From sequence record PQ785851.1: 40,865 bases of DNA. One strand, given 5' to 3'. This DNA is from a phage. The translations under genes and the position numbers were made by a program. Below the pieces are notes generated by a model. It saw only the letters and a list, made by a program, of their open reading frames with translations. It ran no database searches and had not been told where the DNA came from. Shown here piece after piece: positions 3,141-40,865 of the stretch; the stretch's first letter is position 1; each line of letters begins with the position of its first letter.

Positions 3141-3326
3141 TTATCCTTTGATGATTTTGATGTGTTCTGATGTTGTCTTTTCTATCCTTGCGCCTGTTTG
3201 CTCCCATTTTTTACCGTATGATAATTCGCAAAATCTAACAGCCATGTCATGTGTAAGGAATATAGCAACAGGTGAATACGTTGGTAGTATTACCGTGTGC
3301 GCTTTTAATTTATCAGGCATTTTCAT
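3141..3326 (-). CDS. hypothetical protein
   Basis: 61-aa ORF, first gene of the leftward operon, conserved leader ATCGAAAGC upstream. Confidence 0.35.
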   Translation of the reverse strand: MKMPDKLKAHTVILPTYSPVAIFLTHDMAVRFCELSYGKKWEQTGARIEKTTSEHIKIIKG

Positions 3327-3358
3327 TTCTCTATATCTCTATGGTTGCGTGCTTTCGA

Positions 3359-3394
3359 TGTGGTAATGATGCCGCATGCTTGCAACCCTGTCTA
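3359..3394 (-). promoter_or_regulatory. sigma70-like leftward promoter
   Basis: Minus strand reads TAGACA, 17 bp, CATCAT, 6 nt (taccac), ATCGAAAGCACG. Confidence 0.4.
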
Positions 3395-3488
3395 ATTGGT
3401 CTCACCGATTAATTAATTAAGTATACGCGTATAATTCTGTAACTACGTGTAGACATGTGCATTGGTTACGTTTTTCACCACTTAAGCC

Positions 3489-3508
3489 CAGCTATAGCTC
3501 AATGTAAA
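3489..3508. repeat. 20-bp element CAGCTATAGCTCAATGTAAA, copy A
   Basis: Identical 20-mer at 28711-28730; contains the perfect palindrome AGCTATAGCT. Confidence 0.6.
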
Positions 3509-3645
3509 TAGTGTGTATATCGTGTATACCGATTCTAGCGGAGGGTGCATTGGTATATGCGCCTCACAACACTGTATAAAATCACATGATATAAAAATTA
3601 TAACCGGAACACTCCAGAACAGTAGTTACATGGTATACACAGTAA

Positions 3646-3702
3646 TATATATAATAATAATAATAAGAGTAAAAGGTTGATATATATAGATATTTTAATG
3701 TA
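3646..3702. repeat. AT-rich element with (TAA)5 tract, copy A
   Basis: 26-bp block GTAAAAGGTTGATATATATAGATATT (3669-3694) is identical at 28908-28933; preceded by ATAATAATAATAATAA. Confidence 0.6.
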
Positions 3703-3816
3703 ACTATGGCGTAACTTGGCGTAACTGAGCGTATACGATTTCCCGCTGGTGCATATGGTATACATCGAGTTACATCGGTTACGCGTATACCATGATTCGT
3801 GGGTTAATTGGCGATA

Positions 3817-3861
3817 AATAGCACGATTTGCTAAAGACAAGATGCAATCTTTTGGTATATT
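3817..3861 (+). promoter_or_regulatory. promoter-like module, conserved 22-bp element family (copy b)
   Basis: AATAGCAC-GATT-TGCTAAAGAC, 17 bp, TATATT (TG two bases upstream). Confidence 0.45.
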
Positions 3862-3912
3862 TGTGCGCGTGGCGGCAATGTTGCTGGCCAAAACAACGAA
3901 AGAGAGATAAAA

Positions 3913-4578
3913 ATGAACCTAGCTCTACTAAATGAAGATGTGAAAATGAACAGTTATCAGTTTTTGAATGAAGTCATCAATCCAGCGAGATTGATCGCTG
4001 GCGAGTCTGACGTTCGACACAATGACTTTGTTGAGAGGATTGAGGATGAGCTTGATGGGTTTGAGTTTGACTACGAAAGTTTCGTAATCAAAAGCGATGG
4101 AAGAGGAGGTTATAGAAAGTCAATTAATTCACCAGTGCTTAATATGGAACAGATGCTTCTTGTTGGAATGCGTGAGTCAAAGTCTGTTCGCCGATCTGTT
4201 CTTGAAAAGCGCAAGGAGATGCAAAACACAATCAACAAACAGGCAGAAGTAATCACCAAGATGGTAAGCATTGATGAACTAAAAGAGGCAAGAATTATGC
4301 TTGGTGTGGCTAATGCGCAGAACGCTCACCTTAGCCAGCGAATTGTTGCTGAGCAGCGCATTAACGAAATACTTCTTATGGATAAGAGCATTGACGAGAA
4401 ACTTGACCTTCTCGCTTGCGAGGCTCGCCAGTGCTGGGCATCACGCTCAGACGAAATGGAGGAGAGATTTAAGTATGAAGCTCAATGTTTTGCTCTTAAA
4501 GAAAAAACGGAAGCACTGACCGGATTGATCGAGAATAAACTTGGCATCGACATTAAACTGTTGCTGGAAAAGAAATAG
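3913..4578 (+). CDS. putative Rha-like phage regulatory protein
   Basis: 221 aa; N-terminal ...ESDVRHNDFVERIEDEL... resembles the Rha core as I recall it; coiled-coil-like C-terminus. Confidence 0.3.
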   Translation: MNLALLNEDVKMNSYQFLNEVINPARLIAGESDVRHNDFVERIEDELDGFEFDYESFVIKSDGRGGYRKSINSPVLNMEQMLLVGMRESKSVRRSVLEKRKEMQNTINKQAEVITKMVSIDELKEARIMLGVANAQNAHLSQRIVAEQRINEILLMDKSIDEKLDLLACEARQCWASRSDEMEERFKYEAQCFALKEKTEALTGLIENKLGIDIKLLLEKK

Positions 4579-25815: not shown

Positions 25816-25891
25816 TGGTGTTCCGCGCTGGACTCGAACCAGCAACTAAGACTTAGGAGGTCTTTGCGTTATCCTGTTACGCCAGCAGAAC
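25816..25891 (-). tRNA. tRNA-Arg (anticodon CCU)
   Basis: Hand-folded cloverleaf, 76 nt: acceptor GTTCTGC/GCGGAAC, T-arm GCTGG-TTCGAGT-CCAGC, anticodon arm AAGAC-CTCCTAA-GTCTT, encoded CCA end. Confidence 0.8.
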
Positions 25892-27450: not shown

Positions 27451-27481
27451 CTCTATACTCCATCGTGTTGTCGATGTGGTA

Positions 27482-27528
27482 ATTATGCCTGATTTCTCAG
27501 GCGATTGTTTAGCAATTCGTGCTATTGT
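27482..27528 (-). promoter_or_regulatory. promoter-like module, conserved 22-bp element family (copy d)
   Basis: Minus strand reads AATAGCAC-GAAT-TGCTAAACAA, 17 bp, CATAAT, 6 nt (taccac), ATCGACAACACGA. Confidence 0.5.
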
Positions 27529-28070
27529 CCATTCATGAGTAACTTAGCTTTCCTATAAAACTCCATCGCCACCTCAACCTCTTCCTCACTGTACCGCAAG
27601 TGGTATGGTAGTCTACTAGTGTGCTCACCTTCATTCAACTGGTTGCTCCACTCTTCAACTTCTATCGCATGCATGCCAACGATGTATGGATGAACGTAAA
27701 TCTTATCTCCGATTAAGCAGATGACTCCAGCTTCCTGTAGTGATGGCAGGATGTTATTTTTTAGGTCATGCATGAATCCCCCGTTGAGCCCGACAAATGG
27801 CTTGACCTTTCTCAACGCTTCATATGTTGATCTAATTCCGACAACCCCTTTACCATTCATGCTTTGGGCGTGAATCTTTCGCACAACCACTCCAGACTTT
27901 CTGTTGAGATTCACGCTGAGCAACTCATCTACAGCGCACCAGTACTTTTGTGAGTGTCGGTATCCATTAGCATTGATTGCAACTCGCAGTGGTAAAAGTC
28001 CGTCCTGCGTTGCAGTCTTCATAATTTGCTCATCAGTCAGCTTATCTTCGTTAAAATCAAACATACCCAT
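27522..28070 (-). CDS. short, internally deleted paralog of the 527-aa protein at 30694..32277
   Basis: N-terminus M(G)MFDFNEDKL..LPLRVAINANGYR.SQ and segment NGKGVVGIRSTYEALRKVKPF...CLIGDKIY match both ends of the 527-aa protein. Confidence 0.6.
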   Translation of the reverse strand: MGMFDFNEDKLTDEQIMKTATQDGLLPLRVAINANGYRHSQKYWCAVDELLSVNLNRKSGVVVRKIHAQSMNGKGVVGIRSTYEALRKVKPFVGLNGGFMHDLKNNILPSLQEAGVICLIGDKIYVHPYIVGMHAIEVEEWSNQLNEGEHTSRLPYHLRYSEEEVEVAMEFYRKAKLLMNGQ

Positions 28071-28591
28071 TATTTTGCCTCCTTGATAAGTTCCTGATAT
28101 GCGTTGATCATTGACACCGCGCCATTAAGCTCATCGCCTTGCAATCCTGCTACACTTGGTGACAGCTTCAGTAATCGAGCTTTGAATTCGCCAATGGCTT
28201 TCTCTGCAATATGGTTGTTATCCTTAACTCGCTTTCCTATATTAATTGCTCCGTCAACCAGAGTGATGTATGCGCATCGAACGTCAACATCATTACCAAA
28301 GTCTCCATCTTTTATTGATAGCTTAGCACGAACATTAGCAGCTTGAATCTCTGGCATCCTTGCTACCGTGTTGGCTACATAGGACGCTTTCAATTTTGAC
28401 AGGCTGTACTTGCCATCTGCTTCCAAATCCTCGCTGGCGATGCGACCCATGTCATCAGCTGTTAGGCCGTATACCTGGCGGGCAATGAGGTTAATTGGCA
28501 CGTGAAAGGTGCGGTTTTCTGAACTAAGAGCCTGTCGAGCCATGTAGCGGACGACCTCACCCAAACTTACTGCTTCTTTATGTGCTGACAT
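28070..28591 (-). CDS. hypothetical early protein
   Basis: 173-aa ORF, first gene leftward of the divergent hub at 28592-29288. Confidence 0.4.
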   Translation of the reverse strand: MSAHKEAVSLGEVVRYMARQALSSENRTFHVPINLIARQVYGLTADDMGRIASEDLEADGKYSLSKLKASYVANTVARMPEIQAANVRAKLSIKDGDFGNDVDVRCAYITLVDGAINIGKRVKDNNHIAEKAIGEFKARLLKLSPSVAGLQGDELNGAVSMINAYQELIKEAK

Positions 28592-28624
28592 TTCATACTC
28601 CTGATTGGTTGCCTCTCGTTAAGA

Positions 28625-28659
28625 TGAATACATAGTACCACACATCTACACGTTATCAA
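28625..28659 (-). promoter_or_regulatory. sigma70-like leftward promoter
   Basis: Minus strand reads TTGATA, 16 bp, TACTAT, 6 nt, ATCTTAACGAGAG. Confidence 0.35.
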
Positions 28660-28710
28660 GTGTTATTAGTTAAAACATTCTGGTTTGTTACGGATTATTG
28701 GTGTTAGCAC

Positions 28711-28730
28711 CAGCTATAGCTCAATGTAAA
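28711..28730. repeat. 20-bp element CAGCTATAGCTCAATGTAAA, copy B
   Basis: Identical to 3489-3508. Confidence 0.6.
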
Positions 28731-28878
28731 GTCTGCGTACAGTTTGTAGATAAGGATTATTGCCGAATCCACCCATATATGCCTTTTTATTCCTACAATG
28801 TAGTCATATTCCTACAAGCGTAGGAATATATCATAGAAAATCACCAAATATCACATATCAGCTATCTACATTATCTAC

Positions 28879-28942
28879 ATATATATAATAATAATAATAA
28901 TAATAAAGTAAAAGGTTGATATATATAGATATTATTATGTAA
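28879..28942. repeat. AT-rich element with (TAA)7 tract, copy B
   Basis: GTAAAAGGTTGATATATATAGATATT at 28908-28933 identical to copy A; TAA tract two units longer. Confidence 0.6.
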
Positions 28943-29215
28943 CCATTGCGTAATTTCGCGTTATAGGCGTACAGCATTCCTACGGAGGGTGGGTGCATCT
29001 ACACAACATAACTTCTGTAACGTGTACATCCAAAATGGCTCAGCCAGAATCAAAATCAACTTGTATGGTAGTCCTTCCTCTATTCATTCACTCCCACACA
29101 AATAATTGCTAAATTCGCAACAATCAAAAACATCATTGCATCAGATACAATATTGCTATATGTGCAATAATGAGGTGAATCATTGCAATATCTGCAAGAA
29201 TCAATAAATCCAACG

Positions 29216-29268
29216 AATAGCACTTTTTGCTAATGACATTCATTGGCGACTGGACCATAATGAATCCA
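29216..29268 (+). promoter_or_regulatory. promoter-like module, conserved 22-bp element family (copy l)
   Basis: AATAGCAC-TTTT-TGCTAATGAC, 18 bp, CATAAT, 6 nt (gaatcc), ATCAACAACGAGGAGAGAG, ATG. Confidence 0.45.
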
Positions 29269-29288
29269 TCAACAACGAGGAGAGAGAT

Positions 29289-30693: not shown

Positions 30694-32277
30694 ATGTTTG
30701 ATTTCAACGAAGATAAACTATCTGTTGAACAAGTTATGGCGATTGCCGCGACCGAAAACCTTCCACCGCTTCGCGTGGCCATTAATGCAAATGGCTATCG
30801 GCAGTCTCAATCATTCTGGAAAACACCTGTGGAGATTGACGCAGGTAATGACAAGTACCCTGTAATATCTCTAGGCAATGACATTGATGTTGTTGGTAAG
30901 CTATCGGCAAATATTTCTCGCTCAGTTCAGTTCCCAGAGTCATCAGCATACATGCACTTTTTGGGTTGTGTGTCCGCTGCGATGCTAGGGCGCTTTACTG
31001 TTGAGTATCACGGAACCCAGCAGCCAACATCGCTTTACGTGGTAACTAGCCAGCCGCCATCTACTGGTAAGTCAGCCATTAACTCTCTGTCAATTTCGCC
31101 AATGATTGCTGAGACTGAGCGTTTGAACGAGGTGCGTAAACGTGACCGCAAAAAGATTATGGCTAAGCTGTCTGCGCTAGCAAAAGAAATGAAACAGGAG
31201 AAGTCACCATCTGAGATGGCTTCACTGTTTGAGGAGAAGGAAGATTTAGAGGAAAAGCTCGAGAAGCTGTGCGATATCGTATTCCCGGTCTCAGATACTA
31301 CGCCAGAAGGTCTTGCACGAATCAACAACCGCCAGGGTAACTTTGCGGTCATCTCGGATGAGGCAACAAGCGTCAACTCATTATTGGGCATGACATACGG
31401 TGATGGTTCCAAGAAAACGAACAGCGAGCTTGTACTTAAAGCGTGGGATGCTGGTAACGTATCTATTGCCCGCGCTAACGCAGAAAACAACATGAGTTTC
31501 GTGGCAATGGGGTGCATCTCTGTAATTGCTCAGGATGAAACAATCAATGCGATTATGAATGCTGGTGCGCGTGGTATTGGTGTTTCCGAGCGTTTCCTTC
31601 TGGTGCGTGAAAAGTCATTTCTTGGAGACCGCGTGTTTGTTGATGAGAATGGCGATTCAACATACGAGGCTATTGATGGTGGTCTTAAGGCAGACTATTT
31701 CCGTCTCGTTCATGAAATTATGAATGAAGTTGAAGTGAAACTGACAGTAAGTGCGTCATCCATGCGCTACCTTAACCGAGCTCGCCAGGAAATGGAACCG
31801 CATCTTGGTGATGGCGGTAAATATTCCCACACGATGTTACGTGGTGCTCTTGGTAAATTTGATAAGCAAGCAATCCGTATTGCCTCAGTATTGCACGTTA
31901 TTCGCAACTGGTTCGCACCGGCAGGGTCGAGTCCGCAGAAATCAAGAGAGATTGAGCTTGAAACAATGCAAGAAGCGGTTATGATTTTCCACGAGTTAAG
32001 CAAGACTTATTTGTCGTCCGCTAGTGCTGCTGGTCATGCTGGTGATAATGCTGAAATGAATAAGCTGGTTGATATCCTGATTAAGCAAGGTAAGAATGGG
32101 AAGGGTGTTGTTGGCGTTCGCTCACTGTATGAAGCAGCACGCAAAGTTAAACCTTTTGAAGGACAGGCTGGCGTAATGACTCGTATTAAGGACCATTTGA
32201 TTCCGATGCTTGATGAGAAAAACTATACATGCCTGATTGGTGATAAGATTTACATTAATCCGCGATTGTTGGGGTGA
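30694..32277 (+). CDS. large early protein with P-loop-like motif (possible replication-associated protein)
   Basis: 527 aa; Walker-A-like ...VVTSQPPSTGKSAINS...; N- and C-terminal domains are shared with the 182-aa ORF 27522..28070. Confidence 0.45.
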   Translation: MFDFNEDKLSVEQVMAIAATENLPPLRVAINANGYRQSQSFWKTPVEIDAGNDKYPVISLGNDIDVVGKLSANISRSVQFPESSAYMHFLGCVSAAMLGRFTVEYHGTQQPTSLYVVTSQPPSTGKSAINSLSISPMIAETERLNEVRKRDRKKIMAKLSALAKEMKQEKSPSEMASLFEEKEDLEEKLEKLCDIVFPVSDTTPEGLARINNRQGNFAVISDEATSVNSLLGMTYGDGSKKTNSELVLKAWDAGNVSIARANAENNMSFVAMGCISVIAQDETINAIMNAGARGIGVSERFLLVREKSFLGDRVFVDENGDSTYEAIDGGLKADYFRLVHEIMNEVEVKLTVSASSMRYLNRARQEMEPHLGDGGKYSHTMLRGALGKFDKQAIRIASVLHVIRNWFAPAGSSPQKSREIELETMQEAVMIFHELSKTYLSSASAAGHAGDNAEMNKLVDILIKQGKNGKGVVGVRSLYEAARKVKPFEGQAGVMTRIKDHLIPMLDEKNYTCLIGDKIYINPRLLG

Positions 32278-34016: not shown

Positions 34017-34057
34017 TTTGTGTTTACTCGTTTAGTTTGTCTAGTTTCGATGCGGTG

Positions 34058-34102
34058 ATTATGCCGCATTTCTACGGCATTGGTTATGCAAAAAGTGCTA
34101 TT
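34058..34102 (-). promoter_or_regulatory. promoter-like module, conserved 22-bp element family (copy g)
   Basis: Minus strand reads AATAGCAC-TTTT-TGCATAACCA, 17 bp, CATAAT, 6 nt (caccgc), ATCGAAACTAGAC; overlaps the stop of the upstream gene. Confidence 0.45.
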
Positions 34103-40470: not shown

Positions 40471-40865
40471 ATGGCAATTTATGACGCTGGAACAGCCAGC
40501 CTGGCAGCTAACGGCACTGTAACTGGTGTTGGGACTACCTGGATGGCTCCGCTTACGCTGATTCGTGTTGGCGCCACTATTGTTTTCAAGACTGAACCAG
40601 TGAAGATTTACACTATCTCTGAAATCATCAGCGACACGCAGATTAATGTTTACAACCCTAATTCTGAAACCGTTGCTGCTGGAACTGGTTACGCCATTCT
40701 TCTTCATGATGGTATTACAGTTCAGGGTTTGGCACAGGACGTAGCCGAGACGCTTAGATTTTATCAGTCAAATAATTATGTGAGCGGTGGTGATGATGGG
40801 AATGTAAAATTAGAGAACGGAGGAACAGGAGCTAGTACAGCACCTGAAGCGCGTAACAACCTCGG
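40471..40865 (+). CDS. tail fibre-like protein, N-terminal part (continues into 1..743 across the circular junction)
   Basis: ATG at 40471 with RBS GGAG; ORF runs off the window end in the same frame as the open frame at the window start. Confidence 0.5.
   Translation, partial: MAIYDAGTASLAANGTVTGVGTTWMAPLTLIRVGATIVFKTEPVKIYTISEIISDTQINVYNPNSETVAAGTGYAILLHDGITVQGLAQDVAETLRFYQSNNYVSGGDDGNVKLENGGTGASTAPEARNNL

Follow-up and report, generated by a model that had tools for sequence, protein, structure and literature searches.

Two non-coding regions of the phage genome recorded as PQ785851.1 (hereafter the window, the whole stretch of 40,865 nucleotides that was analysed) were found to carry one copy each of a duplicated sequence module, in which the most easily melted DNA of the genome lies directly beside short, helically phased repeats. 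These regions, hub A (3327-3912) and hub B (28592-29288), may represent paired origin-type assemblies, each consisting of an unwinding element and iterons embedded in a promoter region, an assignment that is put forward tentatively, as the best-supported reading, and with slightly less than even confidence. Judging from its sequence, the phage is a virulent T1-like siphophage of the family Drexlerviridae, within the Rtp-like (Braunvirinae) group. The seven classical T phages include T1, which is notorious for contaminating laboratories and fermentations and whose replication origin, to our knowledge, has never been mapped. Studies on the phages TLS and SU57 found no origin or iterons in T1-like phages (PMC11447400, PMC7718038). 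The two hubs are the best candidates so far for such origins, and this lead is apparently unpublished.

Architecture of the Duplicated Module

The original prediction, made from the letters of the window, had described two hubs sharing an AT-rich block, a TAA microsatellite and palindromic repeats, which were regarded as candidate origins or control regions. Every element that it listed was present, with three hub B items requiring coordinate shifts of one or two bases. The shared 20-mer CAGCTATAGCTCAATGTAAA was located on the plus strand at 3489-3508 and 28711-28730, and the palindrome inside it, AGCTATAGCT (3490-3499 in hub A), occurs nowhere else in the genome. The 3′ end of the hub A copy corresponds to an ATGTAA(C) box, and this copy was kept in all hub A orthologues; the hub B copy was found in hub B of Rtp and Msk and was replaced in the 12397V group. 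The identical core of the AT-rich block proved to be 27 nt long, rather than 26, with AGTAAAAGGTTGATATATATAGATATT placed at 3668-3694 and 28907-28933. For the microsatellite, announced with five (hub A) and seven (hub B) units, Tandem Repeats Finder (TRF) gave a length of 5.3 units in the former (3651-3666) and of 7.3 in the latter (28885-28906).

The similarity between the hubs spans about 95 nt (3627-3722 versus 28867-28961, 75-89% identical) and comprises TAYACA boxes, (TAA)5 or (TAA)7, the identical 27-mer, ATGTAAC, and a GCGTA repeat that recurs three times at intervals of about 10 bp. The hub-to-hub offset is 25222 for the 20-mer and 25240 for the module, and the order and orientation of the elements are identical. 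The shared elements are, therefore, collinear direct repeats, and what the hubs have in common is paralogous sequence rather than chance words.

Two components of this module were absent from the original prediction. One is a set of three iteron-like repeats of the form GCGTA(A/T)AC, which in hub A reads GCGTAAC, GCGTAAC and GCGTATAC (3709-3736, plus strand), starting at 3709, 3719 and 3729 and thus spaced by exactly 10 bp; the hub B equivalents, GCGTAA, GCGTTA and GCGTAC (28948-28972, plus strand), start at 28948, 28958 and 28967, with spacings of 10 and 9 bp. All three genomic copies of GCGTATAC are in hub A. The other component is the pair of AGTTACAT/ATGTAACT boxes that brackets the AT tract. 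In hub A, the left-hand AGTTACAT box (3624-3631, plus strand) was invariant in relatives, 3698-3705 holds an inverted copy, ATGTAACT, and 3767-3774 a direct one; three of the four genomic AGTTACAT sites are in hub A, and alifold retrieved the inverted repeat from either strand. On the left side of the hub B tract, the tandem ATCTACAT boxes (28864-28880, plus strand) align with the hub A GGTATACA box; the tandem had been correctly noticed, and its extended form (T)ATCTACAT was repositioned to 28863-28880. Regarding periodicity, the only arrays with a 10-bp period that TRF detected in non-coding DNA were those of hub A, the hub B arrays having periods of 7, 9 and 19. Neither hub contains a GATC site, versus 80 in the genome.

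Each hub also carries repeats of its own. The six GTATAC palindromes ascribed to hub A were confirmed at 3421, 3524, 3633, 3731, 3758 and 3785; they represent 6 of the 17 genomic sites, with 0.17 expected in the hub (Poisson P ~3e-8). In hub B, the ATTCCTAC repeats (28789-28827) include a direct copy at 28789-28796 and the inverted repeat ATTCCTAC-aagc-GTAGGAAT, which occupies 28808-28827 instead of 28810-28829, and another copy is found at 28976-28983, all four genomic copies of ATTCCTAC being in this hub. The CTACA-a-TGTAG repeat was also present, at 28793-28803 after correction, and 5 of the 12 genomic copies of ATCTACA are in hub B. The 20-bp palindrome at 28808-28827 is changed to ATTCTGAC-aagt-GTCAGAAT in 12397V, A110b, T145P1 and an IMG/VR locus (L004), with both arms altered together in a compensatory manner. 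In the same four genomes, the gene nearest to hub B on its left has diverged, its product being 35-42% identical to the DUF7174 protein of the window.

Duplex Stability

Nearest-neighbour free energies were calculated in 60-bp windows over the whole genome. The least stable of all corresponded to the candidate DNA unwinding element of hub B (28879-28938), with -54.3 kcal/mol (z = 5.7), which includes the (TAA)7 tract at 28885-28906, the 27-mer at 28907-28933, and, on the minus strand, a match to the core consensus of the integration host factor (IHF) at 28909-28921. The second least stable was its hub A counterpart (3643-3702), which includes the (TAA)5 tract at 3651-3666, with -56.1 kcal/mol (z = 5.3), while the third site in the genome reached z = 3.25. 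The two modules were also the two least stable sites, at equal map positions, in all eight relatives tested (Rtp, Msk, 12397V, A110b, T145P1, TH27, T1 and TLS), which span three subfamilies and have, apart from this, largely different hub sequences. The genes on either side of hub A in TLS (tail protein J and recE) share one strand, and the AT tract and the repeats are still there. The module is thus kept without divergent genes, and the AT tract is no by-product of back-to-back promoters.

Both modules, therefore, contain the AT-rich element of low stability that characterizes iteron-type origins. Direct repeats in helical phase beside such an element, the other hallmark of these origins, were also found, these repeats being short and only three in number.

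Conservation and Lineage-Specific Motifs

The hub A module (3620-3760) showed 90-96% identity in 99 phage records. When a 10-genome alignment was divided into 30-nt bins, the non-coding DNA at 3440-3800 was 73-98% conserved, with a peak of 92-98% over 3620-3710, and the adjacent recE-like gene fell below the module, at 59-83%. These alignments indicate that purifying selection acts more strongly on the hub modules than on the neighbouring genes. Both module copies were present in the seven Rtp-like genomes examined. The original prediction had named the loss of these elements from related phages as an outcome that would speak against it; both hubs were retained in every relative. Moreover, hub A copies were 89-99% alike between genomes, versus 67-80% between hubs A and B inside one genome, from which it follows that the duplication is old, predating these genera, and that both copies have been maintained.

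Three GCGT repeats at a spacing of 9-11 bp were found in all 14 modules of the seven genomes, and hub B of T1 carries GGCGTAATTTGGCGTAATTTTGTATACGATT, clearly related to GGCGTAACTTGGCGTAACTGAGCGTATACGATT of the window. The microsatellite was also nearly fixed in length, with five units in hub A in six of the seven genomes and seven units in hub B in five of them. Since this is unusual for a slippage-prone repeat, it suggests a constraint on length or spacing.

It was also observed that single motifs were concentrated in both hubs of each genome. The two hubs held all six genomic copies of TGTAACA in T1, all six of CCGCGGA in Rtp, four of the eight copies of GTGAACA in TLS, and four of the eight copies of ATGTAAC in the window. 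One motif shared by both hubs of a genome, and differing by lineage, is the pattern expected of sites co-evolving with a phage protein, and it fits an initiator with its iterons and a repressor with its operators equally well. The apparent likeness of the TLS motif GTGAACA to the type I iterons of P4 was given no weight, since the P4 sequence was unconfirmed.

Both hubs matched about 135 GenBank phage records from Drexlerviridae, the closest being those of the Escherichia coli phages TR2, phiA2-1, CY1, IME253, CEB_EC3a and Rtp. The comparisons were built on GenBank phage records because a scan of IMG/VR with the RecE-like protein returned no confirmed locus. Searches of 5,426 complete genomes of E. 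coli and of 72,556 plasmids matched nothing related to the module, and a host or satellite source was rejected on this basis. The right half of hub B (28864-29237) was 98.4% identical to phage IME542 (locus L007, 1810-2183), while the left half and the flanking genes were 77-85% identical, which suggests a recent recombination breakpoint near the hub B module.

Integration Host Factor Consensus

Read on the minus strand, the 27-nt core is AATATCTATATATATCAACCTTTTAC, within which TATCAACCTTTTA fully matches the core consensus of IHF, WATCAANNNNTTR. This match is found at 3670-3682 and 28909-28921, preceded by an AT-rich 5′ flank, AATATCTATATA, and both hubs thus present the sequence of an IHF site. 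It was retained in both hubs of five of the seven Rtp-like genomes, including two hub B copies substituted at N4 positions, which still match. A role for IHF is plausible from these sequences within the Rtp-like clade only, and not as a defining feature of the hubs.

Candidate Recognition Proteins

No classical initiator was found among the annotated genes. The replication proteins of the window include a DUF3987 helicase of 527 aa (30694-32277, plus strand; Pfam E = 2e-40), of the MCM-like superfamily 6 (SF6), with a C-terminal winged helix, and hub B lies 1.4 kb upstream of its gene, which is read on the same strand. DUF3987 has been assigned to the MCM-like SF6 replicative helicases that carry a winged helix-turn-helix at the C-terminus (PMC4889955), and helicase activity was demonstrated for it (PMC11724360). 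The AlphaFold2 model of the 527-aa protein (predicted local distance difference test score of 86) displayed a helix-strand-helix-helix-strand-strand order at residues 451-527, which is the winged-helix topology, and its top Foldseek matches were MCM subunits and Orc1/Cdc6, with probability 1.0 and low TM-scores of ~0.35. Sequence searches of PDB with this protein and with a 182-aa protein described below returned nothing useful. Based on the model, the winged helix of the DUF3987 helicase is a candidate reader of the hub repeats.

A Cro-like protein of 160 aa, encoded between the separate primase and SF2 helicase genes, carries a helix-turn-helix (HTH) and was kept in all lineages, with 50-54% identity to its T1 and TLS counterparts.

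The second gene to the left of hub B (27522-28070, minus strand) encodes the 182-aa protein, a shortened paralogue of the DUF3987 helicase that combines the N-terminal 42 residues (69% identity) with the C-terminal winged-helix segment (56% identity) and has no ATPase core. This paralogue was found in the window, Msk and 12397V, and not in Rtp, TH27, T1 or TLS. It may act as a competitor or regulator at sites recognised by the helicase.

Proposed Mechanism

Each hub holds a single copy of a cis-acting module that was duplicated long ago, and, if the hubs are origins, this module would function as a replication-origin-type nucleoprotein site. Its unwinding element would be a tract of 60-100 bp, the most easily melted DNA of the genome, made of (TAA)n and TATATATAGATA; sequence-specific boxes (AGTTACAT/ATGTAAC and TAYACA) would stand on both sides of this tract, and the three GCGTA repeats on one side of it, about one helical turn apart, would serve as iterons. 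In the Rtp-like clade, the IHF consensus site at the edge of the tract would bend the DNA. Initially, a phage protein would bind the phased repeats in both hubs, the top candidate being the winged-helix domain of the DUF3987 helicase and the alternative binder the Cro-like 160-aa protein. Then, IHF bending and/or transcription from nearby promoters would open the AT tract, the helicase and the separate phage primase would be loaded, and later replication would proceed via the adjacent RecE/Erf/SSB recombination functions. The two hubs could be either two independent origins or one origin and a cis-acting partner, as in P4 ori/crr.

A more specific version of this model was also considered, in which the conserved module pair, one member by pac and the other by the recombination operon, initiates replication in T1-like phages (Drexlerviridae), the DUF3987 winged helix reads both modules and acts as a self-loading initiator-helicase, the two sites cooperate in cis like P4 ori/crr, and the 182-aa paralogue competes as a regulator in some lineages. 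Taken as a whole, this version is improbable.

Flanking Genes, Predicted Promoters and the Probable Packaging Region

The first 49 bases of the window are identical to the last ones (1-49 = 40817-40865), and this exact terminal overlap indicates that PQ785851.1 is a circular assembly of a genome of 40,816 bp. This genome is several kb smaller than those of related isolates (43-50 kb). The non-coding nature of hub A was established from the open reading frame (ORF) map, the annotation of TR2 and EC3a, and PHROG matches; this hub lies between a minus-strand operon of the recE/erf/ssb type and, on the plus strand, an anti-repressor-like gene (3913-4578). Hub B, also non-coding, corresponds to the place where the two ends of the Rtp and T1 records meet. 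Small genes of the left arm, directed toward the terminase, lie to its left, the nearest being the DUF7174 gene (28070-28591, minus strand), and small genes of the right arm, on the plus strand, lead toward the DUF3987 helicase. The gene orientation in the ORF map, thus, bears out the earlier claim that both hubs separate divergently transcribed operons; the description of these operons as early, made there too, is an inference. An ORF of 61 aa bordering hub A (3141-3326, minus strand) aligned in a small minority of 10 relatives, with 14-24% column identity, and looks like a lineage-specific insertion between hub A and the recombination operon. A tRNA-Arg gene (anticodon CCT) was found at 25816-25891 on the minus strand, in the left-arm small-gene region, as in other T1-like phages.

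Promoter-like sites were predicted mostly at the hub edges. In hub A, a consensus scan revealed a leftward, gene-proximal site, TAGACA-17-CATCAT (3366-3394, minus strand), followed by a conserved leader, CATCGAAAGC, that recurs at 27464-27489 and 34040-34065. In hub B, a predicted sigma-70-like promoter, TTGATA-16-TG-TACTAT (28632-28659, minus strand), was the best of either hub, with a position-weight-matrix score of 12.1, the seventh in the genome. Inside the module, no strong sigma-70 promoter reached the position-weight-matrix cut-off, and the possibility of a strong early promoter there was consequently set aside. A sequence resembling a LexA box, CTGT-N8-ACAT, seen by eye at ~3571-3586, was dropped because the essential CAG half-site was not found.

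The right edge of each hub carries a direct repeat (DR), AATAGCACnnnTTGCTAAAG, with a TAGCA-N5-TGCTA dyad, of which 11 copies were found in the genome (1952, 3817, 4574, 16678, 27507, 29216, 30026, 34083, 36417, 38908 and 40431), all co-oriented with the downstream gene. The hub A copy, AATAGCACGATTTGCTAAAG, with an overlapping, weak predicted promoter-like AAGACA-16-TATATT (3817-3861, plus strand), serves the rightward gene, and the hub B copy, AATAGCACTTTTTGCTAATG, with a weak predicted promoter-like ATGACA-17-CATAAT (29216-29261, plus strand), serves the rightward genes. A -10-like hexamer comes after several of the DR copies, together with a conserved leader, CATCGAAACGAAA, which seems new to the literature. 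The DR itself corresponds to the 21-nt direct repeat aaATAGCACnnnTTGnTAAAA already described for phage TLS (PMC11447400). The DR of the window is like the TLS repeat, with one copy at the right edge of each hub; however, as a genome-wide promoter-like element separate from the AT-rich module, it leaves the module unexplained.

A block of TTGCA/TGCAA repeats (29118-29200), found only in hub B and outside the common module, was near-invariant in eight genomes. The Rtp record begins inside this block and the T1 record at the equivalent place, the first 2800 bp of the latter, starting at position 1, being annotated as a terminal repeat. In the SU57 paper, pac was located in the untranslated region equivalent to hub B (PMC7718038). 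The block at 29118-29200 is the probable pac recognition and cleavage region, given its position. Between it and the module, a second strongly conserved non-coding block, ATCAAAATCAACTTGTATGGTAGTCC...TTCATTCACTC, was noticed at 29044-29100. The idea of each hub as a single device has, therefore, to be narrowed, as the DR right edges and the pac-like block of hub B are separate from the module.

Origin, Operator or Other Function

The proposal that the hubs are replication origins was supported in part. The arrangement on which it was built, with iteron-like repeats beside an easily melted tract, was borne out more strongly than it had been put, although a transcriptional role fits most of the facts too. 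Several observations weigh against an origin function. Protein binding, melting and initiation at the hubs are inferred. Cumulative GC skew, suggested earlier as a check, followed the direction of transcription only and, being uninformative on origins, gave no independent support. The palindromes (AGCTATAGCT, GTATAC, ATTCCTAC...GTAGGAAT and CCGCGG) are as typical of the operators of dimeric repressors as of origins, and very AT-rich DNA is common upstream of promoters, where it provides UP elements, curvature, and H-NS or Fis binding. In addition, weak promoter-like matches, of 9 out of 12 positions, overlap (TAA)n on both strands. Hub A adjoins recE/erf/ssb and is far from the primase and helicase genes, while many phage origins are located in or beside the initiator gene. 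As for IHF, the three consensus matches in the genome, two of which lie in the modules, equal the chance expectation; Rtp and TH27 match only imperfectly in hub B, and T1 and TLS lack the match. The TTWTNCACA boxes of DnaA-dependent origins were not found anywhere in the genome, versus 4.7 expected from shuffles; this absence may reflect avoidance.

Alternatively, the module would be only a transcriptional control hub, an operator and architectural region that coordinates the hub-edge promoters, with IHF or curved AT-rich DNA bending the region and the Cro-like 160-aa protein or an anti-repressor-like 221-aa protein binding the palindromes and phased repeats to switch the early operons. This explanation, the main rival, is a real, if doubtful, possibility. 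It accounts for the placement of both hubs between divergent operons with promoter-like sites at their edges, for palindromes that suit dimeric HTH operators, such as ATTCCTAC/GTAGGAAT with its compensatory variant, for a Cro-like HTH protein that diverges in step with the motifs, and for common motifs that would allow the co-regulation of four flanking operons; predicted promoters have also been annotated by others on the module in phage EC3a. On the other hand, the centre of the module lies 160-320 bp from the gene-proximal promoters, which is far for direct effects of IHF or UP elements, and it holds no strong sigma-70 promoter. Maximal meltability, which operators do not need, has been kept at both sites over three subfamilies, and hub A of TLS has the module without divergent genes. 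The origin and operator readings are not mutually exclusive.

The remaining explanations fare worse against the same data. IHF-bent packaging sites are represented by P1 pac and lambda cosB, and the module could likewise be a pac recognition site with repeats for the small terminase, since hub B coincides with the start of the T1 genome and terminal repeat and with the start of the Rtp record, its module lies only ~200-300 bp inside that end, and pac was placed in the same untranslated region (PMC7718038). The module is, however, also present in hub A, ~15-25 kb away around the circle, whereas a pac is unique and sits at the first packaged end. T1 packaging series start from a single pac. The main argument against this explanation, which is very unlikely, comes from the separate block at 29118-29200, found only in hub B and at the record starts, which is the better pac candidate. 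A small non-coding RNA, or a small protein, as the product of the module is more improbable still. The very high conservation of the module, a 97-codon ORF overlapping hub A (3598-3891, minus strand) and the weak promoter-like sites over (TAA)n could be cited for it; however, Rfam and ARAGORN called no RNA gene in either hub, the only Rfam match being to the tRNA, and hub B has no ORF of at least 60 aa and no terminator after the module. The resemblance of the 20-mer to a tRNA D-arm (TAGCTCAATG) was discarded for the same lack of a called RNA gene. The folding of the alignment yielded only inverted repeats that alifold scored similarly on both strands, which indicates DNA palindromes and not RNA structure, and in relatives any small ORF through the module is broken by indels, of 1 nt and of 4 nt. 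Finally, low-complexity AT-rich DNA yields many spurious motif matches, and the contig, with its 49-nt overlap, is a circular assembly of metagenome style, which could point to AT-rich junk, microsatellite slippage or an assembly artefact. The occurrence of the module in 99 independent isolate genomes with 90-96% identity, a non-coding DNA more conserved than the neighbouring genes, and motif enrichments with P of 1e-8 to 1e-15 leave such a chance or neutral origin with almost no probability, and by these comparisons it is effectively refuted already.

The kind of element described here is familiar, and, at the level of sequence comparison, the finding is conserved and statistically solid. It provides two precise, conserved candidate sites and names a candidate recognising protein, the MCM-like winged-helix helicase. 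If the hubs are indeed origins, they would offer, in a bacterial virus, a model of how an SF6/MCM-type helicase recognises an origin, and their cis elements would be useful for engineering or blocking T1-like phages. If they are purely regulatory, they would still constitute master control regions of the flanking operons.

Comparison with Known Systems

IHF sites are found between the divergent Pe and Pc promoters of Mu and upstream of lambda pL. The hubs resemble the Mu Pe/Pc region in the central position of the IHF consensus between divergent operons, with repeated motifs around it. In contrast, the hub promoters are much farther away, an extreme AT tract and a microsatellite of fixed length are present, and the architecture is kept in T1 and TLS, in which the IHF match is lost. 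T4 oriF and oriG and the primary origin of T7, downstream of phi1.1A/B, combine a promoter with an unwinding element. The hubs share with them an AT-rich unwinding element placed among promoters, in a virulent coliphage with its own primase and helicase and no classical initiator; however, no convincing promoter is directed into the hub AT tract, and the phased repeats have no counterpart in T4 or T7. Together with the classical iteron origins and P4 ori/crr, these are the known systems closest to the hubs.

Iteron origins that combine an AT-rich unwinding element with a site for IHF include lambda ori, pSC101, R6K gamma and oriC, the unwinding element of which lies with IBS1. Compared with these, the hub repeats have a core of only 5-7 nt, present three times, instead of iterons of 18-22 bp, and the hubs, as candidate origins, occur as two separate copies without an adjacent initiator of a known family and without DnaA boxes anywhere in the genome. 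They are nonetheless like iteron origins in that an easily melted AT tract lies directly beside direct repeats about one helical turn apart, with an IHF consensus at the junction, in conserved non-coding DNA.

In the satellite phage P4, ori and crr are bound by the alpha primase-helicase via its C-terminal winged-helix domain, and DUF3987/YfjI-type proteins are also found in P4-like elements. The hubs, as putative binding sites, differ from the P4 sites in that the primase is a separate protein, the helicase belongs to SF6 (MCM-like) and not to SF3, and the two sites are 15-25 kb apart, each with its own AT tract. As in P4 ori/crr, however, two sites separated by kilobases carry common short repeats, and the genome encodes a helicase whose sequence ends in a C-terminal winged helix.

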